Source: Candidatus Woesearchaeota archaeon (lineage in GTDB: Archaea; Nanobdellota; Nanobdellia; Woesearchaeales; GW2011-AR4). From it: a stretch of 64,000 nucleotides of DNA. Below are positions 1-17,653 of the stretch, piece after piece. The position numbers were made by a program, and so were the translations under genes. The stretch is taken from assembly GCA_016187465.1 (NCBI GenBank), contig JACPJQ010000004.1, positions 7,092 through 71,091 of the forward strand. Reading direction: 5' to 3'. The notes beneath the pieces were generated by a model, which searched no databases, had not been told where the DNA came from, and saw only the letters and a program-made list of their open reading frames with translations. The stretch's first letter is position 1; each line of letters opens with the position of its first letter.

Positions 1-744
1 ATCATCACTTATTTGCGGATAGTTCTTTATGAGGTATGCTGCCAAACCCCGCATTGCCCACGAATGCTTGCAGCCGCATGTAGGCCTGCCGTCTTTGGTT
101 ACAGCCGTATTAGCCCCGCAGCAATATTCGCAGCCCATTGTTGGAATTGTTAAAATGCTGATGTACCTTTGCTTTTCCTCCGGAGACAACTGAATCTTGT
201 TCCTGCCGTATGCCGGATCGAGATTTGCTATTATATCAAGACTCTTTATAGGATCATCAAATGAAACGCCAAGCGCTTCCCCATAAAAGGGAACTCCCCT
301 TGATATGACGACAGTCATTGCATCCTGATTTGGGTCGCCTGTCAGAGCAAGGCTTGTTTTAGTTGAAGATGTCTTAAAGGTTAAGCCTGTGCTTAATCCG
401 GCTAGCGCTGATGCCTGCGAGATTTGGATTTGATTGAAGATTATCAAAAAAGCTGCAACTGCCATTAAACCATAGCTAACTTTCTCAGTGAGTGTCAATG
501 GCTTCGCATGTGCTTCGTGCTCTGCATGAATTGCATGCGGCTTGTGTTTAGTATCTTTGCTTTCTGAGACAAAAAGCCACACCAAGAGTCCAACTAATGC
601 AACAATTAGCAATACGGATAAGTAGACCAGTAAGCTGCTATTCAAAAGCCTGTAGAACTGATACTGCGTGAATAGGATGATAGCACTGACCAATACTATA
701 AGGAATATTGTTACTTTTTCCAGCAACTCCTGATCTTTTTCCAT
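1..744 (-). CDS. Membrane-anchored protein with CxYCCG...CGC Cys motif (C-terminus runs off the window start). Paralog of 9390..10379.
   Basis: Hand translation of the minus strand gives MEKDQELL... with an N-terminal TM helix and a C-terminal MGCEYCCGANTAVTKDGRPTCGCKHSWAM. This aligns with TCDYCCGSPQNPTIITRCGCAHSAAAQGM in ORF 9390..10379. It is not in the ORF track because it is truncated. Confidence 0.4.
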   Translation of the reverse strand, partial: MEKDQELLEKVTIFLIVLVSAIILFTQYQFYRLLNSSLLVYLSVLLIVALVGLLVWLFVSESKDTKHKPHAIHAEHEAHAKPLTLTEKVSYGLMAVAAFLIIFNQIQISQASALAGLSTGLTFKTSSTKTSLALTGDPNQDAMTVVISRGVPFYGEALGVSFDDPIKSLDIIANLDPAYGRNKIQLSPEEKQRYISILTIPTMGCEYCCGANTAVTKDGRPTCGCKHSWAMRGLAAYLIKNYPQISDD

Positions 745-887
745 ATTTACCATAGTATTTGCCTTTTCTATATATACTTTACTTGAGAAACGATGTTATT
801 TTTAAATCTTTTTTTATAAAATAAGGCTTAAAAAGGTTTATTATCGTTTTTAGGGTGTTATTCAGGCTTTTCATGGCTAGGATATTT

Positions 888-1838
888 TCAGGAAGCTTTA
901 TGTTTGTAGATAAAACGGGCAATAACAAAAACAAATAAAGCAAATGCAGCCATGCCAGCAAAAGTGATGTAGGGAATTTGGAGTATCCTGTCCTCAAAAA
1001 GGTATGCATAAACTGATGTCCTTAACGGGTCCAGGACGTTGATTACGTTTGTGCCGTTGAACACTATGAACAGTGCGCCTGTGCTTATCAGCAATAAGCC
1101 TGCAATTATTTTTGTTGTGTGCATAAAAAAGGTTTTTCCGAACAGTTTGATTTCAAATTCCCTGCCCCTGAGCCATGCCTTCTGAGTCAGGTTGTATTTG
1201 TCAAACAATATTGAGATTAAAAATAACGGGACAAACAATCCGAGAGAGTAAAAAAACAGCAATGCACCCGAGTAGAGATAGTTGTGGAAGGTAGATGCAA
1301 TAAGCAAAATGCCTGCAAGCACAGGGCCGAGGCACGCGCTCCATCCGAGCCCGAACAGAATGCCGAATGCGAAAATGCCGGCAATGTCATGCCCCGTCTT
1401 CCTGTCTATTTTTATGAAAGAAAAGCCTTTGCCGAGCATTGTCATAAGTCCAAAAACTATAAGAAGCGCTCCTGAAATGAATATCAAAATTTTTGTGTCT
1501 GCAAATTGGATTGAAGCCAGTGTTTCCCCTATTGCAGCCGCAAATATTCCAAGAATAACAAAGACAAACGAGAATCCCGCAAAAAAAACAAGGGTCATTT
1601 TTGTGATTTCCTTCCTTTCCTTGAATGTGTAGGCAAAGAAAGCGGGCAAAATAGCGAGCGTGCACGGCAGCAATACGCTGATTATGCCGCCCAGAAACGC
1701 CACAAAAAGGGAAAGATTTTTCAGATAAAACACAGCCTGCTGCTGGTTATAATCAGTGATTTTCTGCAGTCCAGACTGTGCAAAAGCCAACGGAATTAAT
1801 AAGAATATTGACAGCAAAAAGATGTTTATTTTTTTCAT
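888..1838 (-). CDS. CcdA/DsbD-family transmembrane thiol-disulfide electron transporter
   Basis: Polytopic membrane protein with the two TM-embedded Cys typical of CcdA (LLPCTLAILP and GWSACLGPVLAG). It has a signal peptide. Its start overlaps the downstream ORF. Confidence 0.55.
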   Translation of the reverse strand: MKKINIFLLSIFLLIPLAFAQSGLQKITDYNQQQAVFYLKNLSLFVAFLGGIISVLLPCTLAILPAFFAYTFKERKEITKMTLVFFAGFSFVFVILGIFAAAIGETLASIQFADTKILIFISGALLIVFGLMTMLGKGFSFIKIDRKTGHDIAGIFAFGILFGLGWSACLGPVLAGILLIASTFHNYLYSGALLFFYSLGLFVPLFLISILFDKYNLTQKAWLRGREFEIKLFGKTFFMHTTKIIAGLLLISTGALFIVFNGTNVINVLDPLRTSVYAYLFEDRILQIPYITFAGMAAFALFVFVIARFIYKHKAS

Positions 1839-2326
1839 TTTATTATATTCATGCTGCTACTCCTTTGGCTTTTTTTGAAAATTGCAAAACTTAGTAACCC
1901 AACGCTTAAAATTCCAAGCGACGGTCTTAATGGTTCAAAGTAAGTGAGAACACCAGTAATTCCCAATAGAAATACTAAAATCCTGTTGCATATAGGGCAG
2001 CCGAATGTGAGAAATCCAAAAACTCCGCCTGTTGCAGCCGATGCATTGCACGCCTTATCTTTGCCGCTTGCTTTTCCGTAATAAAGAAGCCCTATATACG
2101 CCCCAATAAGCAATGATGTTATTAAAAGTGATGACATCTCAAGCCATCCTACAGGAGTCATTCTTGTAAAAAACGGATTTTTTATTATGGATGCAACTGC
2201 TCCGAGTATTATGTAAAGAACAGCGGCTGTTCCTGTCGCTATTGATAATGCTATTATTGCACTTTTTCTATTGCCGCTTTTTTCCAAAGCTCTTGTTTCC
2301 TTTTTTAATTTGTTTTTTATCCGCAT
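1835..2326 (-). CDS. Small polytopic membrane protein with C-x19-CPIC motif (possible thiol-redox or metal protein)
   Basis: Four predicted TM segments. Motifs CNASAATGGVFGFLTFGCPICN. The 4-bp overlap with CcdA ORF 888..1838 suggests one operon. Confidence 0.3.
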   Translation of the reverse strand: MRIKNKLKKETRALEKSGNRKSAIIALSIATGTAAVLYIILGAVASIIKNPFFTRMTPVGWLEMSSLLITSLLIGAYIGLLYYGKASGKDKACNASAATGGVFGFLTFGCPICNRILVFLLGITGVLTYFEPLRPSLGILSVGLLSFAIFKKSQRSSSMNIIK

Positions 2327-2949: not shown

Positions 2950-3405
2950 ATGCTTATTTCTTTATTTAAATTTATGTTACTGCTACAAAAAATTGCCATT
3001 AACCAGAAGTTATTTATATTTGCTTGCTATTTTCTGCTTATGAAATCAAATTTTATTGCTAAAGATATAATTTATTCACTAAGCCCGTTAGAAGCTGATA
3101 TAATCAAATCCTTGTTACCAAACAAAAAATACAGGACAAGGGACATCTATGCATTAGTCAGAAACAAAGCCTCAAAGAGCAGCGTATCGGTAATTCTCGA
3201 TAGGCTGTACCAAAAAGGTCTCGTTAATAGGTCAGTTGAAACCGCCAGAGGCGGAATAAGGTTTGTATATGGTCTCGAGCAGAACAAGGAAAATTTTGAA
3301 AAGCGAGTAGTGGAAAATGTGGTGAATTCCATAATACAAAAATTTGGTTCAAAGGCAGTAGTGTATTTTAATGAGAGCTTAAAGAAGCGGGGCAAAAATG
3401 ATTGA
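2950..3405 (+). CDS. BlaI/MecI/CopY-family winged-helix repressor
   Basis: The LSPLEADIIKSLL...RTRDIYALV...SSVSVILDRLYQKGLVNRSVETARGGIRFVY pattern matches the BlaI/CopY DNA-binding domain. The true start is probably an internal Met. The stop overlaps the sensor gene. Confidence 0.5.
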   Translation: MLISLFKFMLLLQKIAINQKLFIFACYFLLMKSNFIAKDIIYSLSPLEADIIKSLLPNKKYRTRDIYALVRNKASKSSVSVILDRLYQKGLVNRSVETARGGIRFVYGLEQNKENFEKRVVENVVNSIIQKFGSKAVVYFNESLKKRGKND

Positions 3406-4168
3406 GCAGTTAGAAATGTGGAAAAATTACTTGTATCATATATTAAATCATCCTCTTCACATGGCTATCTTTGTCCCATCATTAATACTTTCAATTGCGT
3501 TTTTTATTCTGTTCAAAAAATCTGGAGATTTAAGGAAAAAGGTAAATTTTCTGGCAATGCATATAGCGCTGCTGTTCTTTCCCTTTGTGTTCTCGGCTGT
3601 TTTTTGGAGATGCATGATGCCTATGATGAACTGCATGCCTATGATGTTCATGATTTTTGTTCCAATCTCTGGAATCATAACTATAATTTTGGGTTTTGTG
3701 TTGTTGCCATATATGTATAGGTGGTCTGACAAATGCTGCTTAATTAAAAACAACTTTATCAAGAAATTCGTTGAAAAAAATTCCAAAATACTAAAAATAA
3801 AAGAGCCCGAAGTTTATTCGATAAACGATCTAGAGCCGGCAGCTTATTCCATAACAAACCTAAAACCATCGATTTTTGTGTCTGCGGGGCTTTCAGAACT
3901 GCTTACAAAGAAGGAACTCGAAGCGGTTTTGCTGCATGAATTGCATCATCACAAATGCAAAACCTACTTCTGGAAATTTTCGGGCAATGTCCTTAGGCTA
4001 TTTACGCCAGTGGCAGCTTTTACAGGATTCTCAGGCACCTTAGAAAAAGAGGAAATTGAAGCTGACAATTATGCTATATCCATGCAAAATACAAACAAAT
4101 ACATTCTTTCGGCAAAGTCAAAAATAAAAAATTTCAGGACTTCTCGGCTCCATGCAGATGCCAAATAA
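3398..4168 (+). CDS. BlaR1/M56-like membrane Zn-metalloprotease signal transducer with a Met-rich tract
   Basis: Polytopic membrane protein with HExxH (LLHELHHHKC). It carries an unusual Cys/Met-rich segment, WRCMMPMMNCMPMMFMIF. It is translationally coupled to the BlaI-like gene. Confidence 0.45.
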   Translation: MIEQLEMWKNYLYHILNHPLHMAIFVPSLILSIAFFILFKKSGDLRKKVNFLAMHIALLFFPFVFSAVFWRCMMPMMNCMPMMFMIFVPISGIITIILGFVLLPYMYRWSDKCCLIKNNFIKKFVEKNSKILKIKEPEVYSINDLEPAAYSITNLKPSIFVSAGLSELLTKKELEAVLLHELHHHKCKTYFWKFSGNVLRLFTPVAAFTGFSGTLEKEEIEADNYAISMQNTNKYILSAKSKIKNFRTSRLHADAK

Positions 4169-5102
4169 CGAGCAAAAAAATTGACAAAGCAGAAATGATC
4201 CCTAAAATGTTGCCTGATACTGACGTGAATATTCTTGTTCCCAAAGATGCCTCATTCAAGTAGCTCCAGAACGACATAGACCATGGAATGTATTTTGGCA
4301 GCTCGCTTTGAAAAAAGAAAGTTCCTTTAAAAATAACCATTAGTATCCCTATTGCAAGCAGCAAAATTCCTCCAATTATGTTGTATGTATGGGTAATTAT
4401 TTTTTTATTAAACAGCTTAAATTCTATTGATTTGCCCCTCAATAATTTTGAATTTGCCCAGTCGTATTTATCTGAGAAGAATGCCAGCAAAATCAAAGGA
4501 GATGCTATGCCTATTCCATAAAATACAAGCATCAAAGTCCCATTTAGCACAGTTGCAGAATTTGCAGCCAATAAAAGTATGCCTGTTAGAATTGGCCCAA
4601 CGCATGGAGTCCAGCCGATTCCGAAGAAAAATCCCAATGAAGCCACACTAAAAAAACTTTGGCCTTTCCTGTAATCCAATTTAAAATTAAAGATTGTGAA
4701 GCCTATATTGAAAAACATCAAAATTCCGAAAAAAATCAGCATATAGCCCGATATAACGGCAAAAGCCAGCTTGTAGCTGTTGAAGAAATTGCCCAAAAAG
4801 CCTGCTATCAGCCCAAAAAATGTGAATGCTATCAGCAGGCCAATCGAAAATGCGCTTGTCATAAGCACAGCTTTTTTTCTGTCCTTAAAAGCAAATGAAA
4901 AAAATGTCGGCAGCAAAGCAATACCGCAAGGTGAGGTCATTGAAATCAAGCCTGCAAAGAATGCAAGCAAAAATGTTATACTGGAGGCTAATTGCTGCTC
5001 TTGCTGCTTTAGTTTTTGAAGGCCTATTGGCAATTCCTGTGCGAACGCTATGCTAGCGAACAACACAACAAATATTAATACAATTAATAATTTTTTGGTC
5101 AT
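4134..5102 (-). CDS. CcdA/DsbD-family transmembrane thiol-disulfide transporter (paralog of 888..1838)
   Basis: TSPCGIALLP and GWTPCVGPILTG motifs. About 45% identical in architecture to 888..1838. Confidence 0.55.
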   Translation of the reverse strand: MTKKLLIVLIFVVLFASIAFAQELPIGLQKLKQQEQQLASSITFLLAFFAGLISMTSPCGIALLPTFFSFAFKDRKKAVLMTSAFSIGLLIAFTFFGLIAGFLGNFFNSYKLAFAVISGYMLIFFGILMFFNIGFTIFNFKLDYRKGQSFFSVASLGFFFGIGWTPCVGPILTGILLLAANSATVLNGTLMLVFYGIGIASPLILLAFFSDKYDWANSKLLRGKSIEFKLFNKKIITHTYNIIGGILLLAIGILMVIFKGTFFFQSELPKYIPWSMSFWSYLNEASLGTRIFTSVSGNILGIISALSIFLLVIWHLHGAEKS

Positions 5103-5594: not shown

Positions 5595-6119
5595 TTATAT
5601 TACGTACTTATACTTTTGCAAGCCAAAAAATGCCCTTATTCTCTTAAATAAACCACGGCAATCATCAATAACCATGCTATCATGTTTGTCCAAGAAGTTG
5701 TAAATATGCTTGTCAATTAACGCTCTTATGAAATAATAGATTGGCTTCATGCCCCAAAAGCTCATATGAACCATAGCATATCTCCACCCGTCTATGTTGA
5801 TAAGGACATCGCCATAGTTAATCCTTATCTTTTTCCCATCTTTCTTAATAATAACTTCTTTAACATTGTCCATTAAAGCTCTCAAAGAAATAATGCCCAT
5901 TGTATGCTCCATGTCCATATGCATATGTGCTTCTATTAGCCATTCTATTTTTTTGCCATTTTTTGTAACATGCTCCATCTTTTTCTTTGGTTCTTTTTCG
6001 TAGCCTTTTTCCTTTATCCAGTTATCAACTTCTGCATAGAAGTCCTCAACTACAAAAGGACCATTATAGGTTGTTCTCAAGTCATAAAGTACCTGTTTTC
6101 TCTCCATCATTTTTATCAC
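5595..6119 (-). CDS. Hypothetical cytoplasmic protein
   Basis: ORF of 174 aa with no TM segments. Its start overlaps the upstream HxH gene, so it is in the same operon. Confidence 0.3.
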   Translation of the reverse strand: MIKMMERKQVLYDLRTTYNGPFVVEDFYAEVDNWIKEKGYEKEPKKKMEHVTKNGKKIEWLIEAHMHMDMEHTMGIISLRALMDNVKEVIIKKDGKKIRINYGDVLINIDGWRYAMVHMSFWGMKPIYYFIRALIDKHIYNFLDKHDSMVIDDCRGLFKRIRAFFGLQKYKYVI

Positions 6120-6622
6120 TTATATTCAATCACAATTTCATCCTTATCATGCATAATATATTTATTAAATTCAAAATTTTCTTTACCGTTTACTGTAATT
6201 TTTAAAGTTCCATTTTCTCCATTGCAATATTCAAAAATGCAAGAGCTGTTGAAATTCCTTCCCCAGACTTTAAAGAAATAACCTAATGTCAAAGTTTCAG
6301 GCTTTTGCCATGGTCTGTTGTTCTCCAAATGTATAGTGCCATCGCTTTCATGCGTATGGGTAGGAGACATTCTCATACCGCTTATTTGATTATCTATATT
6401 GTTGCCTATGCTTATTCCGATATTTGGAGGTATAAACTGCTCTTCGCCTTTGATCATTATTTTAAGTTTAGGATGCCAGTGGACAGGCTGCTGAGGCACT
6501 CCGTTTGTATTATTGCTTTGAGACGGGCTTTTAAATAAAAGAATGAATCCTATAAATACAGCTATTATTACAATAACTGCAATATAAATTGGCTTTATTT
6601 TCATTTTAATGCAATTCCGCAA
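6116..6622 (-). CDS. HxH-motif membrane-anchored extracytoplasmic protein (HWH subtype)
   Basis: N-terminal TM segment. HWHPKL...THTHESDGTIHLE...CIFEYC...VNGKE. Paralog of 16913..17653 and more distantly of 6606..7322 and 11286..11927. Confidence 0.4.
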   Translation of the reverse strand: MRNCIKMKIKPIYIAVIVIIAVFIGFILLFKSPSQSNNTNGVPQQPVHWHPKLKIMIKGEEQFIPPNIGISIGNNIDNQISGMRMSPTHTHESDGTIHLENNRPWQKPETLTLGYFFKVWGRNFNSSCIFEYCNGENGTLKITVNGKENFEFNKYIMHDKDEIVIEYK

Positions 6623-7322
6623 AGCCTGTTATTGAATTAAACTGATTTTTTATTTCATCTTCGCTTTCATCGCCATAGCTTATCAAAATTTTGTCCAAAT
6701 CATTGAATACATAATTTTCAAATTCATTGCTTTCTTTTCCATTGACAAAGAATTTTAGCTTTTTATTGCTATTATTGCAGAATTCTTTGTTTTCCAGAGT
6801 TATGCAATTCTTGTTGAACTCCATGCCTATGCTTTTGAAGAAAACCCACAAAGGAACTCCGGTTGCGTGTATGTGCAATGCGCCGCCAGCATCGTCTTTG
6901 TTCTGCTGATTGTCAATGTGGACAAAGCTGCTTTTCATGTAAAATCTGCTATCTGCAAAATTAAGCGGCTTTTCATTTACATAAACTTTAAAGTCAGCAT
7001 GAATGTGCTGCGAATCGAGAATGCCTATTTTTGAATCTGGATTCATGTTGCACTCTAATTGCCCGGAGTCAAGACACATCTCTACAGGCATTCCACAGGA
7101 ATCGCATCTGCCGTCATTATTCCTGTCCATCATGCCTCTTCCAACCTCTCTGTCAAAAGCCGTCAAAGTCATTCCTGAAACTCTTTTCATTTGAGAAGAT
7201 GATTGTTCAACTTGCCCTGTTTTTGAGCTTAGAAAATCAAATAGGGAAAATATGAGCAGTCCGATAACTATAAAGAATATAAATATTAATGTCAATGCCC
7301 CAAAATCTGCCTTTAATTTCAT
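6606..7322 (-). CDS. HxH-motif membrane-anchored extracytoplasmic protein (HIH subtype) with N-terminal YHS-like CxxCGM segment
   Basis: HIHADFKVYVNEKP...HIHATGVP...KNCITLENKEFCN...FFVNGKE. About 55% identical to ORF 11286..11927. Extra RCDSCGMPVEMC motif. Confidence 0.4.
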   Translation of the reverse strand: MKLKADFGALTLIFIFFIVIGLLIFSLFDFLSSKTGQVEQSSSQMKRVSGMTLTAFDREVGRGMMDRNNDGRCDSCGMPVEMCLDSGQLECNMNPDSKIGILDSQHIHADFKVYVNEKPLNFADSRFYMKSSFVHIDNQQNKDDAGGALHIHATGVPLWVFFKSIGMEFNKNCITLENKEFCNNSNKKLKFFVNGKESNEFENYVFNDLDKILISYGDESEDEIKNQFNSITGFAELH

Positions 7323-7735
7323 TTCTTCTCAATCTTGTCATAAATATGCCATCCAATGCTGAATATTGCCAAAATTCCTCCAACAATCCAGGAAAGATAA
7401 TTGAAATTTTGAACTTGCTGAAACGGCACACCAGCAATTATCAAGCCTGAATTAAATAAAATTAGTTTGCCTGACAAATGCATTCTTTTTTTATATTTTA
7501 AAATTATTGTGATTGTTAATAATGAGACTGCGACAGTCCAAAATGGAATTGCAACTTTTGTCAAAAACAGCAACGGCATTCCTGCTACTGCAAAACCTAG
7601 AAAGGTAAGGAAAGCAACTAAGGCTAAGCATGCATTATGGCAAACTTGATAGCTACCAAGAAAGCTTAAACCACCAGAAATACTTCCAGCTACACCCACA
7701 AATTTCTCTTTTATTTTGTTTACTACTTTTACCAT
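7319..7735 (-). CDS. Small integral membrane protein (about 4 TM segments, CHNAC motif)
   Basis: Hydrophobicity pattern. Start and stop overlap the adjacent genes. Confidence 0.3.
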   Translation of the reverse strand: MVKVVNKIKEKFVGVAGSISGGLSFLGSYQVCHNACLALVAFLTFLGFAVAGMPLLFLTKVAIPFWTVAVSLLTITIILKYKKRMHLSGKLILFNSGLIIAGVPFQQVQNFNYLSWIVGGILAIFSIGWHIYDKIEKK

Positions 7736-7739
7736 ATTC

Positions 7740-8261
7740 TCATTTCTTATGTTTATCTTTTTTATCTTTCATACTCTTCCACAATTTTATAATCCAAAGA
7801 TAAACCAAGATTATTAGTCCTATAAATAGTATAATATAAAGAACATTTAGAAAATTCCAATAGCCAAAACCGTAGCCATAAGGCGTACTCCCATAACTCA
7901 TCCTATTGCCTCCCATCATCATATTCATCATTCCTCCATTCATCATGCCAGCACCCATCATTCCGCCTGTATTTTCATTGCAATACACCATTTTTGCCAT
8001 GTTAATATGAAACTGCTTTTCTGCTTCAGAGCCTTCTTTAATTCCCATCATTTTATGCATAAGCTCATGGCTTTCGCCAGAGTGCATTAATTCCATTTCA
8101 TACTCCCCAATTATTTCTAACTGGGAGTCTGATAGACTTTTGCAGTCCACTCTTGAATCAATCAAGTTCTTAGCTTCTTTGATTTCCTGTTGTGTGATTG
8201 CATTAGCTAAACCCAAATTTAACAATAAAGCAACAATTGCAACGAATATTATTTCTTTCAT
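7740..8261 (-). CDS. Secreted Met/Gly-rich protein (MMGAGMMNGGMMNMMMGG, GYGFGY)
   Basis: Signal peptide. Met-rich low-complexity region of the kind found in Cu(I)-binding Met-motif proteins. Confidence 0.4.
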   Translation of the reverse strand: MKEIIFVAIVALLLNLGLANAITQQEIKEAKNLIDSRVDCKSLSDSQLEIIGEYEMELMHSGESHELMHKMMGIKEGSEAEKQFHINMAKMVYCNENTGGMMGAGMMNGGMMNMMMGGNRMSYGSTPYGYGFGYWNFLNVLYIILFIGLIILVYLWIIKLWKSMKDKKDKHKK

Positions 8262-8463: not shown

Positions 8464-8982
8464 TTAAGTTGTGTCTATATTTTGGCCGTACGGATGAATT
8501 AATTTCCATCCGTTGCTTCTTTTCTTTAATGTATATACACTTTCAAAATCTTTTTTAGCCCCGTCTTTGCCAATTATCTCGATTTTGTAATTGACTCCAG
8601 CCTCTTTATCATTTTCATACTGAGTTTGCACATCAATGACACTGACACCATTAGCTGTCTCGTAAAATTTATCCATATAGGCTTTAAAGCCATCAAATGA
8701 TTTTGCTGTAGGCTCTATTTGCTTGAAGCCATCTGAAATAAGGGAATACATTATATCATACTGCTTGCTGTTCCATGCCTGAAAGTAAAGTGTTACAACT
8801 TGAATTTGGGTTAAAGTGGAAACATCCTGAGATAGGATGGCTTTTTGCTCCTGCTGCGTCTTTGTGCATGCGCTTAATAAAATTACAATAAAAATGACGA
8901 AGGTCAGTGAACTTTTCATTCTTATCAGCTTAGTCAAAATCCAGTCGCTATCATTGGTTTCTTTGGCTGCATATCTAAGCAA
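8464..8982 (-). CDS. Hypothetical lipoprotein or secreted protein
   Basis: Signal peptide with Cys (LLSACTKT). No catalytic motif recognised. Confidence 0.3.
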   Translation of the reverse strand: MLRYAAKETNDSDWILTKLIRMKSSLTFVIFIVILLSACTKTQQEQKAILSQDVSTLTQIQVVTLYFQAWNSKQYDIMYSLISDGFKQIEPTAKSFDGFKAYMDKFYETANGVSVIDVQTQYENDKEAGVNYKIEIIGKDGAKKDFESVYTLKKRSNGWKLIHPYGQNIDTT

Positions 8983-9140
8983 TTAGCACAAGCAATCACT
9001 TGGTTTTGCTGCTCATAATCTGAAGGCGCATTCTTAATATTTTCCATAATTGATTTCTTTATAGTCTTTAGCTGCATGGATTGCATGAATAAGACTAATA
9101 TAAGAAGCGCTAAAACCATTATCGTCAGCGAGGTTTTCAT
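8934..9140 (-). CDS. Small membrane-anchored protein (68 aa)
   Basis: N-terminal TM helix. CANCLD motif. Confidence 0.2.
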   Translation of the reverse strand: MKTSLTIMVLALLILVLFMQSMQLKTIKKSIMENIKNAPSDYEQQNQVIACANCLDMQPKKPMIATGF

Positions 9141-9157: not shown

Positions 9158-9355
9158 TTAGCAGCCGCCTACCATTGAAGGCAAGTTTTGTATGCTTGAT
9201 GGAACACTTGCTCCAGAACTTTGGAGTGGTGCGCTTCCAACATTCACATTGCCTGTGCTTATGCTTGTCTTCAGACTGCTCAGCTGAATGGCTTGAACTG
9301 CCGTCAGAAGCACTAAAACCACAAGCACAATCACAATGATAACATTTCTGTTCAT
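9158..9355 (-). CDS. Small membrane-anchored protein (65 aa)
   Basis: N-terminal TM helix. Confidence 0.2.
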   Translation of the reverse strand: MNRNVIIVIVLVVLVLLTAVQAIQLSSLKTSISTGNVNVGSAPLQSSGASVPSSIQNLPSMVGGC

Positions 9356-9389: not shown

Positions 9390-10379
9390 CTAAGCTTGCA
9401 TTTCTTGAACTATCCTTTTAATTGTTGGGCCTGGATACCATAAGGAATACCATCTGCCCATTTCTCCATAAATCTCTTCATCTGTAAACTTATCAGCGTA
9501 ATTCTTTATGAACCATCTTGCCATTCCTTGAGCAGCTGCAGAATGCGCGCACCCGCATCTCGTTATTATTGTCGGATTTTGCGGAGAGCCGCAGCAGTAA
9601 TCGCATGTGAATGAATTTACTATCTTGCTCCATCTTTGTTCTTGCTCAGGGTCCAATTCCAGCTTCCTGTAAGTTGCCCACCTCTTCTGCGCAGCTATCG
9701 GGTCATCAAAAGTGACGCCTGCTTCCTGCCCATACCAAGGAGTTCCTGTCGGGATAATATTATTCAGCAAATCTCTAGCCGCATCTCCAGTTGACGGCTT
9801 AAGTGATAATTCGCTAATTGTTGGCATTGGCTTAACCTTTGTTTTGTAGCCAGATATTACAGGCTGTTCGCCGGATGCAAGTGGCATTGGCTTAAGGGTG
9901 ATTTTCGAGCCAACTTCAAACTGCCCCAGTTTTAAAGTTCCGCCGCTGCCTGATCCAAAGAATTTTAATGGTGCAGAAGATACAGAACTTACAAAACTGC
10001 CAGTTGATGGATTACCGCTTGCCAAGCCATTCACTTGGAAAATCTGGAACTGGTTGAATAAGATTAATAAAGCTGCCAAACCTACTAAGCCATAACTAAA
10101 TTTTTCAATGAATGTCAATGGTTTTCTTTCTGATTTTGCAATGTGCTCGACAACATGTTCTTTTTTATCTTTATCATGAACTTGTTCATCTTTGCCAATA
10201 ATCCACCATGCAAGCAAGAATACCAGAGCTAATAACAACAATAATGATAGCATGTTCAGAAGCATGCTTGAAGAGTATTTAATCAAGAAGAGCTGCTTGT
10301 AAAGAAGTCCAATCCCTACAATAGAAATTAAGACTAACATTACCTTCTCCATAAATGGGTCATTTCTCTCTTCTGTCAT
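9390..10379 (-). CDS. Membrane-anchored protein with CxYCCG...CGC motif (paralog of 1..744)
   Basis: Two N-terminal TM helices. C-terminal FTCDYCCGSPQNPTIITRCGCAHS. Confidence 0.4.
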   Translation of the reverse strand: MTEERNDPFMEKVMLVLISIVGIGLLYKQLFLIKYSSSMLLNMLSLLLLLALVFLLAWWIIGKDEQVHDKDKKEHVVEHIAKSERKPLTFIEKFSYGLVGLAALLILFNQFQIFQVNGLASGNPSTGSFVSSVSSAPLKFFGSGSGGTLKLGQFEVGSKITLKPMPLASGEQPVISGYKTKVKPMPTISELSLKPSTGDAARDLLNNIIPTGTPWYGQEAGVTFDDPIAAQKRWATYRKLELDPEQEQRWSKIVNSFTCDYCCGSPQNPTIITRCGCAHSAAAQGMARWFIKNYADKFTDEEIYGEMGRWYSLWYPGPTIKRIVQEMQA

Positions 10380-10708: not shown

Positions 10709-11302
10709 CTATTCATTAACCAATTTGCCAAGCAGCACTTTCCATTGTTCTTCATCAAATGCGCCGATTGTGCGGTATATTATTGTTCCATTACTGCCAA
10801 TTGCATATTTGGTAGTTGTTTTTGTAATGCCATAGTCAATAAGTATTTTTTCCTGACCTTGTGCAAATATAGTTTTTTGCAGCTCTGGGTATTCTTTCTT
10901 GTATTCCTTAAGCTTAAGAAAATCCTCGCTTAAGTCCAGGCTTATTGATATAAATGTTATGTTATCTTCATACTCCCTGTACATTTTTGATAATGCAGCA
11001 TAGTCCTTTGCGCACCATGGGCACCATGTTGCCATGAAATACACAATAACTGGCCTTTTCCGCTCAATGATGTCGTATAATCTTACAGGCTTTCCCTCTG
11101 TAGTTATCACAACAAAATCCGAAGGGGCTTGGCCAACTCTGGTGCCGATAACTTGCACTTGATTTGTGTTTTGATAAACTGTTGTTGACTTTTCTTCGAG
11201 TTTGTCTTTGCTTGAAAATACATAGATGGCAATAGCAGAGAGCATTATAATCACTAATATTACAAAAAAATCAGATTTCCATTTCTTAATGGTTTTTTGC
11301 AT
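10709..11302 (-). CDS. TlpA/ResA-like membrane-anchored thioredoxin (WCPWC)
   Basis: N-terminal TM segment. Thioredoxin fold with the WCPWC active site. Confidence 0.65.
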   Translation of the reverse strand: MQKTIKKWKSDFFVILVIIMLSAIAIYVFSSKDKLEEKSTTVYQNTNQVQVIGTRVGQAPSDFVVITTEGKPVRLYDIIERKRPVIVYFMATWCPWCAKDYAALSKMYREYEDNITFISISLDLSEDFLKLKEYKKEYPELQKTIFAQGQEKILIDYGITKTTTKYAIGSNGTIIYRTIGAFDEEQWKVLLGKLVNE

Positions 11303-11927
11303 AATCTGTCACTGAATTTATCTGTTTTAGAAGTTCTTCTTCTGTTTCATCGCCGTAACTTATCAGTATTTTGTCCATATCTCTGAAGACATAAACTCCG
11401 ATATCAGAATATTCCTTCCCATTTACAAAAAATCTAAATTTTTTATTGGCGCTATTGCAAAATTTTTGCTGATTTTCCAGGGTAATGCATTCTTTGCCCA
11501 AATCAGCCCCAACACTTTTTAAAAAATACCAGAATGGAACGCCTGTTGCGTGCATGTGTATAAGCCCTGAAGCGTCTTCCTTGTTTTGCTGGTCGTCCAG
11601 ATGGATGACACTGCTTTTCATATAGTGTTTATCATCGGCAAAATTTATGGGATTTCCATTAATAAAAATCTTAAAATCGGCGTGGATGTGCTGCGAGCCT
11701 AAAGCCCCCATATTTGCACTTTTAACCCTTTCGTCTTTAGCTAGCTCGTCATCCATAAAATTAAATTGCATTGAAGACCGCACATTTTTTTGAGATGAAA
11801 CTGCATTTATCTTATCGGCAGTGAAGCTGAAAAAATCTTTCAAAGCCAAGACTAACATTCCAAAAACAGCAATCAATAAGATTGCCAGTGCTATTCTTTC
11901 TGTTTTGCTTTCCATGTTTGATGCCAT
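11286..11927 (-). CDS. HxH-motif membrane-anchored protein (HIH subtype)
   Basis: HIHADFKIFINGNP...HMHATGVP...KECITLENQQKFCN...FFVNGKE. Overlaps the thioredoxin gene. Confidence 0.4.
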   Translation of the reverse strand: MASNMESKTERIALAILLIAVFGMLVLALKDFFSFTADKINAVSSQKNVRSSMQFNFMDDELAKDERVKSANMGALGSQHIHADFKIFINGNPINFADDKHYMKSSVIHLDDQQNKEDASGLIHMHATGVPFWYFLKSVGADLGKECITLENQQKFCNSANKKFRFFVNGKEYSDIGVYVFRDMDKILISYGDETEEELLKQINSVTDYAKNH

Positions 11928-11929
11928 AT

Positions 11930-12376
11930 TTAGTTTTTAACGATGTACTTTCCTTTCATTCCTGTATGCCCCGGGCCGCAATAGACCGTGCATACCATAT
12001 CCCACTCCCCAGCTTCTTCTGCGTTTATCTCCAACATTGTTTTGTCTCCTTTTTTGACTGCATTTTCAGTATCCCAGCCGGGGATTATTATGCCTTCTAA
12101 TTCAAAGCCGTGCGGAACATCAATGCTTTCTATCACAAATCTTATTTTTTCCCCTTTCTTAACTACAATAGTATCTGGCTCCCATCTGTACTGTATTGAT
12201 TTCACTTCAATCTCCCTGACTCCATTTATAATTTTGCCGCTTAAAGGCAGGCTGTCAAATTTCTTTTTATGGTATTCAATTATTTTTTTAGCCTTTATTG
12301 CATCTTCATTTTCTTTTGGAGCGCATGCGCTTGCGAAGATTATCAATAAAACAAACATTAACATTGTTTTTTTCAT
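11930..12376 (-). CDS. CuA-type cupredoxin lipoprotein (cytochrome oxidase subunit II-like soluble domain)
   Basis: Lipobox ASACAPK. VPHGF...(about 40 aa)...CTVYCGPGHTGM, which is the H / C-x3-C-x3-H-x2-M CuA ligand set. Confidence 0.55.
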   Translation of the reverse strand: MKKTMLMFVLLIIFASACAPKENEDAIKAKKIIEYHKKKFDSLPLSGKIINGVREIEVKSIQYRWEPDTIVVKKGEKIRFVIESIDVPHGFELEGIIIPGWDTENAVKKGDKTMLEINAEEAGEWDMVCTVYCGPGHTGMKGKYIVKN

Positions 12377-13269: not shown

Positions 13270-13716
13270 TCACTTGACGATGAGGTTTCCTTTCATTCCG
13301 CTATGCCCTGAGCCGCAGAACACTGAGCAGTAAGCTGTGAAAGTGCCTTCTTTGTCTGCTGTAAACTCTATTGTAACGGGCTTGCCTACTTCGAGCCTTT
13401 CATTTATGCCATACTCCTTGATTGCTATGCCGTGCGGCACATCCATGCTTGTCACTATGAGCCTTACTTTGTCGCCTTTGTTGACTTCGATGGTTGATGG
13501 TGTAAATGAAAACTGCTTTGCCGTAATTTTGAATTCTTTGACATTGATTCCAGACACTTCTGTATCTTTAGTTGCTGGCTCCTCTATAATCGGCTGTTTT
13601 TGCCCCGGAACTTCACTTCCCCCGCCAACGAGGTTTTCCGGCGCTTGAGTATTTTGATTGGCACAGGCACTGACCAAAAACACGCCCAGCACTAAAAACA
13701 ATATTATTTTTTTCAT
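13270..13716 (-). CDS. CuA-type cupredoxin lipoprotein (paralog)
   Basis: Lipobox VSACANQ. VPHGI...AYCSVFCGSGHSGM. Confidence 0.55.
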   Translation of the reverse strand: MKKIILFLVLGVFLVSACANQNTQAPENLVGGGSEVPGQKQPIIEEPATKDTEVSGINVKEFKITAKQFSFTPSTIEVNKGDKVRLIVTSMDVPHGIAIKEYGINERLEVGKPVTIEFTADKEGTFTAYCSVFCGSGHSGMKGNLIVK

Positions 13717-15093: not shown

Positions 15094-15336
15094 CTAAGAA
15101 CTAGCAAGTGTTGAGAAATTAACCTCAACTGGAATGTCCAATTTAATGTCCTGAAGGTCTTTAGACCGTTTTTTAAAGCTAAGAATGCCAACACTTTTCA
15201 CTTCCTCTGATTTTTCATCTATTCTTAGGAATACCCCTGGCTTTACTTCAGAAGCATAGCATTTTGATGGCTTTCCCACAGAGATTTCCAAAAAATCTCC
15301 TTCCTCGTCATAATAAACTTTCATAGGACCTTTCAT
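15094..15336 (-). CDS. DUF2283-like antitoxin
   Basis: YYDEEGDFLEI motif. Overlaps the upstream toxin-like gene. Confidence 0.4.
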   Translation of the reverse strand: MKGPMKVYYDEEGDFLEISVGKPSKCYASEVKPGVFLRIDEKSEEVKSVGILSFKKRSKDLQDIKLDIPVEVNFSTLASS

Positions 15337-15644
15337 TTTATATTCCTCACAAAGTAAGCTGTGATTATAAAGCCATGCTCATTTAAATACTTAACGATTA
15401 CAAGCAGGTATTTTGCTGATTCTCTTTCCTTGAAATACTTGTAATAGTATCTGACATTTTCATCAAGTTCATATTCAGTAATTTTAACAGGATTTTTTAG
15501 TGTCTCTTTTATATCTTCAAGGTAGGGAGCAACTTCAGGATGCTCTTGATTGAGATGTTTCCATCTTTCATCTGAGAGATGAATTTTCCTGCCTGATTTG
15601 TCTTCAACCTCAAAAATCCACGTCATAATACATATTGATTGCAA
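15333..15644 (-). CDS. DUF4258-like toxin
   Basis: Size, and pairing with DUF2283-like gene 15094..15336. Confidence 0.35.
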   Translation of the reverse strand: MQSICIMTWIFEVEDKSGRKIHLSDERWKHLNQEHPEVAPYLEDIKETLKNPVKITEYELDENVRYYYKYFKERESAKYLLVIVKYLNEHGFIITAYFVRNIK

Positions 15645-16203: not shown

Positions 16204-16911
16204 TTAATTAAGTGTTATAGTTCCGTTTGCAATCAAAATCAGCAGCCAGCCAAGGAGTATTAAGATTATGCCGGTTGCAAGCCTCATGTAAGTTCTGTTG
16301 CCTTGCTTCCATCTCTTTAAGTTTTGTATCTTAACGCCAAAATAAACCATCAGCAAAATAACCACCAATGGCAAGACAAAGATAACATTGTAAAGGATAA
16401 GCCACAAAAATGCAGTAAAATTAAAATTTTGCGACAAAAACACAAGGATTGCCAAATACGGTCCGCCTGTGCATGGCAGTTCAACACCCGCAACAAAAGC
16501 CCCCAGGAAAATCATTGCAGGTAAGGTAATTTTCTTCGTCATTTCATGTATCTGCTTTGCCCTTTCAGGAGGAATCGACAAAGTGATGCCCTGCCCGTAC
16601 CAGAAAAAATCCTTTATTTCAATCAAGCCTGCTATTACGATTAAAGAGCCTACAACTATTGATATGTACTCGCTCACGACAATCGGGATTACACTTAAAA
16701 AATACAGAATACCCAGCCCTGCCAACAGGTATGTCAGGAACACAAAAAATATGTATATAAGCCCGTAGAATAGCATCTCTTTTTTCGAGCGGAATGCTAT
16801 CATAACCGAAACCAGAAGTATAAGCACCCCTATAGCGCAAGGGTTAATTGAATCTATCAATGCTGTTGTTACAACTGTTCCTAAAGTCGGAAGATATGCT
16901 TGAACTGTCAT
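16204..16911 (-). CDS. CcdA-like / DsbD_2 family membrane protein
   Basis: INPCAIGVL in TM1 and LPCTGGPY in a later TM segment. Confidence 0.5.
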   Translation of the reverse strand: MTVQAYLPTLGTVVTTALIDSINPCAIGVLILLVSVMIAFRSKKEMLFYGLIYIFFVFLTYLLAGLGILYFLSVIPIVVSEYISIVVGSLIVIAGLIEIKDFFWYGQGITLSIPPERAKQIHEMTKKITLPAMIFLGAFVAGVELPCTGGPYLAILVFLSQNFNFTAFLWLILYNVIFVLPLVVILLMVYFGVKIQNLKRWKQGNRTYMRLATGIILILLGWLLILIANGTITLN

Positions 16912-16912
16912 T

Positions 16913-17653
16913 TTATCCTATATTGGGGTTTATTTCCTCTGTTGGCTTTTCCGTGAATACAATTTTTATCATGTCCCCGGGAGGCACTTTTTCATAAGGA
17001 GAGATCACATAATCACGAGGATTTTCAATCAGGTTTCCGTTGACAAAAACATAAAGTTTTGCAGGTCTTTCATTGCACTTGTCCCCCTCATGAAATGAGG
17101 CTAATCCATTATCGGTTGGGACGATTATTCCATCACTGGAAAGAGAGCCGCCTATAGCATAGAAGAAAGCCCCCAAGCTGGCTGCTTTCCTGTCCAATAA
17201 AACTCCCTCTACATGAATTCTATTGTCATTATGGGCGTGCATTAAATCTGTCCCTTGCTTGTTTGAAAAGCCCTTTGGCTCTATCAGTTTAATTTCTTTG
17301 CCGCAAACCAGAAGTTCGTAGTCAGCATGCCAATGCACAGGACCTTTTGTAATTGAGATTATGTTTAAGTGCAATGTTGTCAGGATAAGATAGAGAGTTG
17401 TAAGCCCGATTGAAACCGCGATTAGTATATAAGCTGTCTTTTTTGCCGTTTCATTCATTTTTTTATTAAATAATAGAATTGTCACAATTAAAATGCCAAA
17501 AACCAAAGTGCCATAGCTGACTGCCTGCAGTTGGCTTATTGGATAAAGCTCAGAATGGTCAAGCATATACGCTTCTTCCTCTCCGTGGGCAATAACAATA
17601 AAAACAGATAAAACTAATATTAAAAATAAAAATACCAAAAACCTCTTTTTCAT
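16913..17653 (-). CDS. HxH-motif membrane-anchored protein (HWH subtype)
   Basis: HWHADYELLVCGKE...LMHAHNDNRIHVEGV...FVNGNLIE. Directly upstream of the CcdA-like gene. Confidence 0.4.
   Translation of the reverse strand: MKKRFLVFLFLILVLSVFIVIAHGEEEAYMLDHSELYPISQLQAVSYGTLVFGILIVTILLFNKKMNETAKKTAYILIAVSIGLTTLYLILTTLHLNIISITKGPVHWHADYELLVCGKEIKLIEPKGFSNKQGTDLMHAHNDNRIHVEGVLLDRKAASLGAFFYAIGGSLSSDGIIVPTDNGLASFHEGDKCNERPAKLYVFVNGNLIENPRDYVISPYEKVPPGDMIKIVFTEKPTEEINPNIG

Follow-up and report, generated by a model that had tools for sequence, protein, structure and literature searches.

A large unannotated family of membrane-anchored archaeal proteins with a conserved histidine cluster and a possible role in envelope copper handling

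A 64-kb stretch of DNA from a Candidatus Woesearchaeota metagenome-assembled genome (the window, to which the coordinates below refer unless a locus is named) encodes four paralogous proteins on its minus strand (NCBI locus tags HYW20_04370, HYW20_04375, HYW20_04415, and HYW20_04460). These proteins belong to a real, large, and unannotated family that merits a definition of its own and whose putative metal site is highly conserved. Tentatively, its members may act as membrane-anchored, extracytoplasmic, β-grasp-like copper relays or chaperones that work with a thiol-reducing pathway; both the metal and the mechanism are what we infer from the conservation pattern and the genes nearby.

The four paralogs and their histidine motifs

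The paralogs, designated A through D, are as follows.

6116..6622, minus strand: paralog A, type 1; transmembrane anchor and His-cluster ectodomain; HWH48-50, HTH89-91, HLE98-100; Cys128/Cys133
6606..7322, minus strand: paralog B, type 2; HIH106-108, HID135-137, HIH150-152; Cys173/Cys182
C73, C76, C83, and C91 of paralog B: extra Cys4 module between the transmembrane helix and the His-cluster domain
11286..11927, minus strand: paralog C, type 2, without the Cys4 module; HIH80-82, HLD109-111, HMH124-126; Cys147/Cys157; 209 aa at NCBI
16913..17653, minus strand: paralog D, type 3; three N-terminal hydrophobic segments; HWH107-109, HAH139-141, HVE147-149; Cys117 and Cys193

Homology among the four proteins, proposed in a first-pass annotation of the window, is borne out. 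All six pairwise BLASTP comparisons are significant, with E values from 2e-71 (B and C) to ~2e-5 (pairs that include D), and a family hidden Markov model (HMM) searched against all open reading frames (ORFs) of the window matches exactly A, B, C, and D, with nothing further at E ≤ 10. B and C, which had been put at about 55% identity, are 45% identical overall and 61% identical over the domain. The true start of A is probably M7 (nt 6604), giving a gene at 6116-6604 and a protein of 162 aa; A is a 100% match to NCBI HYW20_04370, which also has 162 aa. An N-terminal transmembrane anchor is found in every paralog, as had been noted, with one hydrophobic segment each in A, B, and C and three in D. 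Because the conserved domain follows the last hydrophobic segment in all four, it should face outward. The common C-terminal region, first written as VNGKE...D.D.I.I.Y, is also present throughout, in the form VNG...Y...D.D.I.I.[YF].

Each paralog contains three H-x-[H/D/E] motifs on three predicted strands, as given by cross-type alignments of 69 sequences and by an HMM alignment of 509 domains. The motifs read HWH/HTH/HLE in A, HWH/HAH/HVE in D, HIH/HID/HIH in B, and HIH/HLD/HMH in C. This arrangement replaces the earlier description of two HxH motifs with a separate [IV]H[LV][ED] motif. It also displaces the equation of HIHATG in B and C with THTHE in A: the aligned partner of HIHATG is IHLEN, and that of THTHE is VHID/IHLD. 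The core consists of four histidines, both of those in motif 1 and the leading one in motifs 2 and 3; they occur in 507, 509, 506, and 508 of the 509 domains, and the 69-sequence alignment shows the same pattern. Conservation of the HxH positions in homologs had been set beforehand as the test of the metal-site reading, which survives it with every core histidine in at least 506 domains. Searches of PDB sequences and, by Foldseek, of PDB structures matched no characterized non-metal fold with nonequivalent histidines.

The second positions of motifs 2 and 3 exchange histidine for an acidic residue reciprocally. At motif 2 the residue is His in 274, Asp in 151, and Glu in 82 of the aligned domains, and at motif 3 it is His in 281 and Glu in 226; the counts are not independent, given the relatedness of many of these sequences, but the pattern still spans three divergent subtypes. 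Taken as pairs (motif 2, motif 3), the combinations are (H,E) in 225 domains, (D,H) in 151, (E,H) in 81, and (H,H) in 49, while acidic residues at both positions occur in none of the 509. Such a swap would be expected of a single site formed by all six side chains and requiring a minimum of five histidines. The original proposal that the cluster binds Cu or Zn thus gains from the conservation of the histidines, from the His/acid swapping, and from a genomic context that favors Cu over Zn, all of which is support of sequence and context.

Family extent, predicted fold, and the cysteine pair

An exhaustive HMMER search with a profile built from the four paralogs retrieved 2085 representative clusters (50% identity) at E ≤ 1e-3, 790 of them at E ≤ 1e-10. 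The members fall into three subtypes, with A in type 1, B and C in type 2, and D in type 3. They occur in the DPANN archaea (Woese-, Pace-, Aenigmat-, Nano-, Iain-, and Micrarchaeota) and in a few bacteria of the candidate phyla radiation, including at least one Parcubacteria genome. A distinct clade is present in Nitrososphaerales/Thaumarchaeota, and one Nitrosopumilaceae member is fused to a YncE β-propeller. Among the matches listed, none of ~360 homologs carries a precomputed Pfam domain. Scans of the four paralogs against Pfam and NCBIfam gave sub-threshold noise alone (Flp1_like, ocr, MAG0110), and PDB sequence-profile searches gave the same (best E values, 0.058 and 0.93). Literature searches on Woesearchaeota CcdA, DPANN disulfide formation, and DUF4430 found no description of the family; a preprint on MauE concerns a different membrane protein. 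Some thaumarchaeal homologs carry the NCBI name "protein-disulfide isomerase." We rejected this name because no NCBIfam or Pfam model supports it, the domain lacks CxxC, and the predicted fold is β-grasp-like rather than thioredoxin-like. No thioredoxin-type Pfam or NCBIfam match was found in the window paralogs or in P0521, P0437, P0288, and P0490, the last being a homolog from a search of the Nitrososphaerales clade.

AlphaFold2 models of A and B, with predicted local distance difference test (pLDDT) scores of 90.6 and 87.6, respectively, consist of a transmembrane helix, a disordered linker, and a compact β-rich domain. The three motifs lie in or beside predicted strands, at residues 41-43, 82-84, and 91-95 of A (numbering of the 162-aa protein that starts at M7) and at residues 107-115, 134-136, and 148-151 of B, and motifs 2 and 3 form a hairpin in the predicted structure. 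Residues i and i+2 of a strand point to the same side. Judging from β-grasp topology, the HxH of motif 1 would precede strand 1 and sit beside the motif 2/3 hairpin, and the Cys hairpin would follow the main helix toward the other end of the domain.

Foldseek searches of both models against the PDB returned weak neighbors alone (best E values, 4e-3 and 1.8e-2): the β-domains of haptocorrin, transcobalamin, and intrinsic factor, the DUF4430 protein 3u7z, and superantigen and ubiquitin-like β-grasps. These weak β-grasp neighbors suggest a β-grasp/SLBB-like fold class, without a solved homolog. They also bring up a reading in which the domain is an SLBB β-grasp like the transcobalamin β-domain or DUF4430 and binds a small organic ligand, for example a corrinoid for auxotrophic archaea, with a histidine as the axial ligand. 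The cobalamin-binder β-domains and 3u7z are indeed the best PDB neighbors of both models. However, all of these matches are weak (E from 4e-3 to 2, TM-scores of 0.3-0.6 on the target, 6-12% identity), and the sequence profiles provide no link to any Pfam or PDB family: the four paralogs have no Pfam match to SLBB, transcobalamin β-domain, or DUF4430 models, and PDB profiles return noise. In addition, no B12 transport or salvage genes occur in any examined context, and the four to six conserved histidines exceed what an axial ligand requires. We therefore consider this function highly improbable.

A C-x6-9-C pair had been ascribed to all four paralogs. The pair is present in A, B, and C, although with spacings of C-x4-C, C-x8-C, and C-x9-C, respectively, and is absent from D, where, as in type 3 generally, Gly replaces the first Cys and another Cys (C117 in D) follows motif 1. 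Across the family, 446 of the 509 domains have the pair (it is missing in ~12%), and 496 have the second Cys. Both cysteines are at the base of a predicted β-hairpin in the models of A and B. The shared position and the varying length of the loop point to a structural disulfide across the strands, and the pair is probably a staple of the hairpin. A redox-active site was judged less likely than a staple in view of the hairpin-base position, the variable loop, and the domains without the pair.

The additional segment of B (RCDSCGMPV), previously described as YHS-like, is confined to B among the four paralogs, but B matches no Pfam family at E ≤ 1, and the segment has no match to Pfam YHS (PF04945). 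A TRASH domain was ruled out by the cysteine spacing, C-x2-C-x6-C-x8-C in B versus C-x2-C-x19-22-C-x3-C in TRASH. AlphaFold2 predicts a confident small module here (pLDDT 93-96). Its consensus is MDxNxDGxCDxCGMxVExC..SGQ..C, and it occurs in 145 of 524 family members. The MDxNxDGxCDxCGM module also ends small separate ORFs just downstream of family genes (L073:9309-9668 and L080:7669-8085), and P0248 has a second copy at its C-terminus.

Gene neighborhood and possible functions

The paralogs lie within an ~18-kb island (window 1-17.7 kb) whose genes encode envelope proteins rich in Cys, His, and Met. Related neighborhoods were compared in 80 loci from GTDB genomes and 14 from other look-ups, a sample that leans to type 2 and to DPANN because it was gathered with a narrower type-2 alignment. 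The genes of the island that encode thiol proteins and a membrane partner are the following.

888..1838, minus strand: third CcdA (DsbD_TM) of the island, by Pfam
4134..5102, minus strand: CcdA (DsbD_TM), downstream of A in the order A, hyp174, hyp162, CcdA
7319..7735, minus strand: four-transmembrane membrane protein of 138 aa with CHNxC in its first transmembrane segment; no Pfam match
10709..11302, minus strand: TlpA/ResA-like membrane-anchored thioredoxin (WCPWC); AhpC-TSA 3.7e-15, Redoxin 7e-10
16204..16911, minus strand: CcdA/DsbD-like thiol transporter, Pfam call SfLAP; begins 1 nt after paralog D

The link between the family and the CcdA/TlpA pathway is strong. CcdA or TlpA genes adjoin family members, often overlapping or nearly abutting them. 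The start of the TlpA-like gene overlaps the 3′ end of C by 17 nt, a CcdA-family gene is the direct neighbor of type 3 in 7/7 cases, and the order A-hyp162-CcdA recurs in other Woesearchaeota loci. The family domain is also fused to DsbA (P0387) and to TlpA-like AhpC-TSA/Redoxin domains (P0271 and P0354), and loci recovered with P0490 have DsbD_TM, AhpC-TSA, and Thioredoxin_10 downstream. The first-pass annotation had seen in the Cys pair a target of this machinery. The association with the pathway is thereby upheld through adjacency, overlaps, and fusions; the pair itself looks structural, and the domains that lack it argue against such a role. Type 2 has a further partner in the CHNxC protein, which is its commonest direct neighbor (31/106) and turns up in 50 of 80 related loci. 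In the window, the CHNxC gene lies upstream of B and overlaps it by 4 nt at its 3′ end; in P0310 and P0333, a CHNxC protein precedes the type-2 domain in one fused polypeptide. The CHNxC protein may be a metal conduit or a thiol-exchange partner.

The same associations bear on whether the domain could be a metallo-redox enzyme rather than a carrier, with a His-cluster Cu (or Fe) center that exchanges electrons with thioredoxin-fold partners. In one form, it would be a quinone-independent thiol oxidase that makes disulfides for DsbA-like proteins where DsbB/VKOR is lacking; in another, a CcdA-fed extracytoplasmic reductase acting on Cu(II) to give Cu(I), or on superoxide or peroxide. Multicopper oxidases and Cu,Zn-superoxide dismutase have bi- or trinuclear HxH sites, and the predicted five to six histidines and carboxylate on one sheet face resemble catalytic sites of this kind. 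The DsbA and TlpA-like redoxin fusions, a triple-thioredoxin-fold protein in the conserved DPANN cluster (see below), the pairing of a membrane thiol protein with every subtype, and the isomerase name of some thaumarchaeal homologs also fit an enzyme, although that name is backed by no NCBIfam or Pfam model. However, the domain has no CxxC motif, and its Cys pair is variable in spacing, located at a hairpin base, and absent in type 3. The partners belong mostly to the reducing branch (CcdA and TlpA), and at ~125 aa the domain is small, with no evident pocket for a substrate predicted. These features make an enzyme unlikely.

Copper proteins form the second part of the neighborhood, beginning with two genes in the window.

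11930..12376, minus strand: CuA-type cupredoxin (C-x3-C-G-x2-H-x2-M), directly upstream of C in the same operon
13270..13716, minus strand: second CuA-type cupredoxin, COX2-like; Cupredoxin_1 1.7e-11, COX2 1.1e-8

The minus-strand run from 13716 to 10709 consists of a cupredoxin, a 283-aa ORF, a cupredoxin, C, and TlpA. Both cupredoxins stand alone, are anchored in the membrane, and have the binuclear CuA motif CxxxCGxxHxxM; the 64-kb window encodes neither an oxidase subunit I nor an N2O reductase. Cupredoxins with a CuA motif occur in 10 further family loci. P-type ATPases of the CopA/CopB type are encoded within 10 kb in 20 of 92 loci, one extra regular-expression match being a false positive. 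Their signatures are CPCALG with MxxSS and, in the Parcubacteria locus, CPH with MSLST; we take CPC with MxxSS to denote P1B-1 (CopA) and CPH with MSxST to denote P1B-3 (CopB). In one annotated context, a multicopper oxidase, a Redoxin protein, and a YHS/HMA ATPase accompany the family gene. In another, the family gene overlaps a Redoxin gene and is followed by a rhodanese, with a multicopper oxidase, Redoxin, and DsbD downstream. A further context has a rhodanese, the family gene, and a YHS-YHS ATPase, with DsbA upstream, and one homolog adjoins NosD. A whole clade of the family resides in copper-dependent ammonia-oxidizing archaea. DsbD-family genes rank among those that Cu limitation induces most strongly in N. 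viennensis; the study that found this leaves open which chaperones act in the periplasm and what the induced DsbD proteins do (PMC7785015).

These data allow a tentative mechanism to be outlined. The three H-x-[H/D/E] motifs on three neighboring strands would form a transition-metal site, most likely for copper, with the four invariant histidines, at least one further histidine, and one histidine or carboxylate as ligands. The domain would take up or hold copper outside the membrane and pass it between membrane conduits, namely the CHNxC four-transmembrane partner and CopA/CopB-type exporters, and extracytoplasmic cuproproteins such as the CuA-type cupredoxins and multicopper oxidases; alternatively, it may serve detoxification. 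The co-encoded CcdA-to-TlpA/Trx pathway would keep the cysteines of the partners, and possibly those of the domain itself, reduced. We infer in this way that the histidines form one site and that the metal is copper, as well as the direction of transfer and the part played by the Cys pair. Copper is favored over zinc because CuA-type cupredoxins, Cu-ATPases, and multicopper oxidases appear in the context.

Several observations weigh against a copper relay. A His-only site would suit Zn(II), Ni(II), and Cu(II) to much the same degree, relays of Cu(I) mostly rely on Cys or Met, and the closest structural neighbors bind cobalamin, not metal ions. Many loci have no copper genes (e.g., the Nitrosopumilaceae locus L093, and L089), and the 64-kb window itself contains no Cu-ATPase. 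The yardstick for the 20 of 92 loci is a rough estimate of our own, a chance of 2-4% of finding a Cu-ATPase within 20 kb in an ~1 Mb genome, and the locus counts are not independent, since the phylogenetically related DPANN loci dominate the sample.

Some of these points would be accommodated by a site for a different metal (Zn, Ni, or Fe/Mn), or by a structural or sensory site, in a generic module of a stress or metal-homeostasis island under BlaI/BlaR control. Co-location with copper genes would then reflect a general metal island. Sites for Zn, Ni, and Fe typically draw on His/Asp/Glu ligands, the conserved D-CcdA-VIT1-cupredoxin arrangement includes a VIT1 Fe/Mn transporter, BlaI/BlaR pairs occur in ~30 of 80 loci, and several loci are without any copper gene. 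However, where a recurrent neighbor can be assigned a metal, that metal is copper (CopA/CopB signatures, the CuA motif, and multicopper oxidases), and the Pfam-annotated contexts contain no ZIP, CDF, or Nik-type genes. A non-copper function is, on this balance, quite unlikely, and a copper relay or chaperone remains our tentative preference.

The wider envelope island and known systems

A recurrent DPANN gene cluster comprises divergent BlaR-like and BlaI-like genes, genes for a 329-aa, a 65-aa, a triple-thioredoxin, and an NTF2-like protein, one or two family members, and the CHNxC gene. CcdA, TlpA, a CPxC membrane protein, a Met/Gly-rich protein, and cupredoxins are its variable members. The BlaI/BlaR-like pair is linked divergently to the cluster in the ~30 DPANN loci mentioned above. 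The remaining features of the island in the window are given here.

1-753, minus strand: truncated second paralog of the 329-aa protein
1835-2326, minus strand: 163-aa membrane protein with G-C-P-x-C-N within a transmembrane segment; no Pfam match
2950..3405, plus strand: BlaI/CopY-family repressor
3398..4168, plus strand: BlaR-like M48/M56 membrane protease (HELHHH) with a Met/Cys-rich transmembrane region (FWRCMMPMMNCMPMM)
7740-8261, minus strand: 173-aa secreted or anchored protein with a Met/Gly-rich low-complexity stretch (MMGAGMMNGGMMNMMMGG) and His/Met motifs (MHSGESHELMHKMMG)
8934-9140, minus strand: 68-aa ORF with an N-terminal transmembrane region like that of the 65-aa protein and a different end (…CANCLDMQPKKPMIATGF)
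9158-9355, minus strand: 65-aa protein with an N-terminal transmembrane helix, a Ser/Gly/Ala-rich linker, and a C-terminus that reads exactly ...NLPSMVGGC
9390-10379, minus strand: 329-aa transmembrane protein; no Pfam match
15094-15644, minus strand: overlapping 80- and 103-aa ORFs between the VIT1 and ATP-cone genes

The LPxMVGGC-COOH terminus of the 65-aa protein is essentially invariant in more than 40 DPANN homologs, and its gene always follows that of the 329-aa protein; a literature search on MVGGC gave no match. The C-terminal domain of the 329-aa family contains an invariant C-[DE]-[YF]-C-C-[GS]...C-G-C-x-H and the conserved elements FDDP and W..L.YP. Some of its homologs end in LPxMVGGC themselves, and others carry an N-terminal CPxCQ domain with multiple transmembrane segments that resembles the ORF at 1835-2326. 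The gene at 1835-2326 is directly upstream of a CcdA gene and has homologs in 13 of 80 loci. The protein at 7740-8261 recalls Cu(I)-binding proteins rich in Met and has homologs in 18 of the 80. The triple-thioredoxin protein (~380 aa, with one CxxC per repeat) is represented by L042:7455-8594 and by equivalents in L033, L043, L018, and L061. Its gene lies between the 65-aa and NTF2-like genes in most DPANN loci, it is fused to a cupredoxin in L018, and it has no homolog in the window. The 68-aa ORF overlaps the predicted start of the NTF2-like gene and may be a degenerate paralog or not a gene at all. The ORFs at 15094-15644 have the look of a toxin-antitoxin pair inserted in the island.

The undescribed 65-aa and 329-aa components suggest a larger system of which the His-cluster family would be one part. 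We offer as a speculation, and a doubtful one, that this is an archaeal extracytoplasmic copper/thiol relay, undescribed so far and conserved across DPANN. Its parts could include the BlaI/BlaR-type pair, the four-transmembrane CHNxC conduit, the CPxC membrane protein, and the Cys-rich ectodomain (C-x2-C-C...C-G-C-x-H), together with the triple thioredoxin-fold protein, the NTF2-like protein, the His-cluster β-grasp proteins, and the membrane-tethered peptide in which a flexible Ser/Gly/Ala linker leads to LPxMVGGC-COOH. The terminal Cys of the tethered peptide might serve as a swinging arm, shuttling among the components with copper or reducing equivalents. If such a relay exists, archaea, copper-dependent ammonia oxidizers included, would have in the His-cluster domain their missing counterpart of the Sco, PCuAC, and CopC chaperones.

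To our knowledge, it is largely unknown how archaea load copper into extracytoplasmic proteins and how DPANN, with their minimal genomes, manage envelope metals and thiols. In ammonia-oxidizing Thaumarchaeota, the question concerns ammonia monooxygenase, multicopper oxidases, and plastocyanin-like proteins. The family is widespread (>2000 clusters at 50% identity), and its small, soluble domain provides a concrete candidate for direct tests in vitro. Should the copper assignment be wrong, a large unannotated ectodomain family with an evident putative metal site would still stand.

Among known systems, CopC/CopD (including YcnJ-type fusions) resembles the family in that a small, extracytoplasmic, His-rich Cu domain is paired with or fused to a membrane protein in copper-homeostasis loci, as type-2 members are beside or fused to the CHNxC protein. 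However, CopC is an Ig-like β-barrel whose His site is amino-terminal, and CopD is a larger and different protein. Neither the paralogs nor the CHNxC protein have a Pfam CopC/CopD match, and the Foldseek neighbors are β-grasps. A second likeness is to TlpA acting with Sco1/SenC and PCuAC, because CuA cupredoxins, a CcdA-fed TlpA-like reductant, and a candidate carrier (C) are found in one transcription unit. Sco proteins, in contrast, have a thioredoxin fold with CxxxC and His, whereas the ligand set of the family is His/carboxylate; the paralogs have no Pfam SCO1-SenC match and no CxxxC in the ectodomain. For PCuAC (DUF461), the expression H(M)X10MX21HXM finds nothing in any window ORF, and the paralogs have no Pfam match. 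The defining motifs and folds of CopC, Sco, and PCuAC thus place the family outside all three. CueP, which operates with DsbC/ScsABCD in Salmonella or DsbA in Corynebacterium, is a periplasmic Cu protein that is reported to depend on envelope thiol reductases (PMC4546943) and is encoded near Dsb-type genes. It differs from the family in binding Cu through Cys and in having an unrelated fold, whereas the family is His-dominated with a probably structural disulfide. The β-domains of transcobalamin and intrinsic factor and DUF4430 (3u7z) are the best, although weak, structural neighbors of both AlphaFold models, and what distinguishes the new family from them is its His cluster and Cys hairpin.

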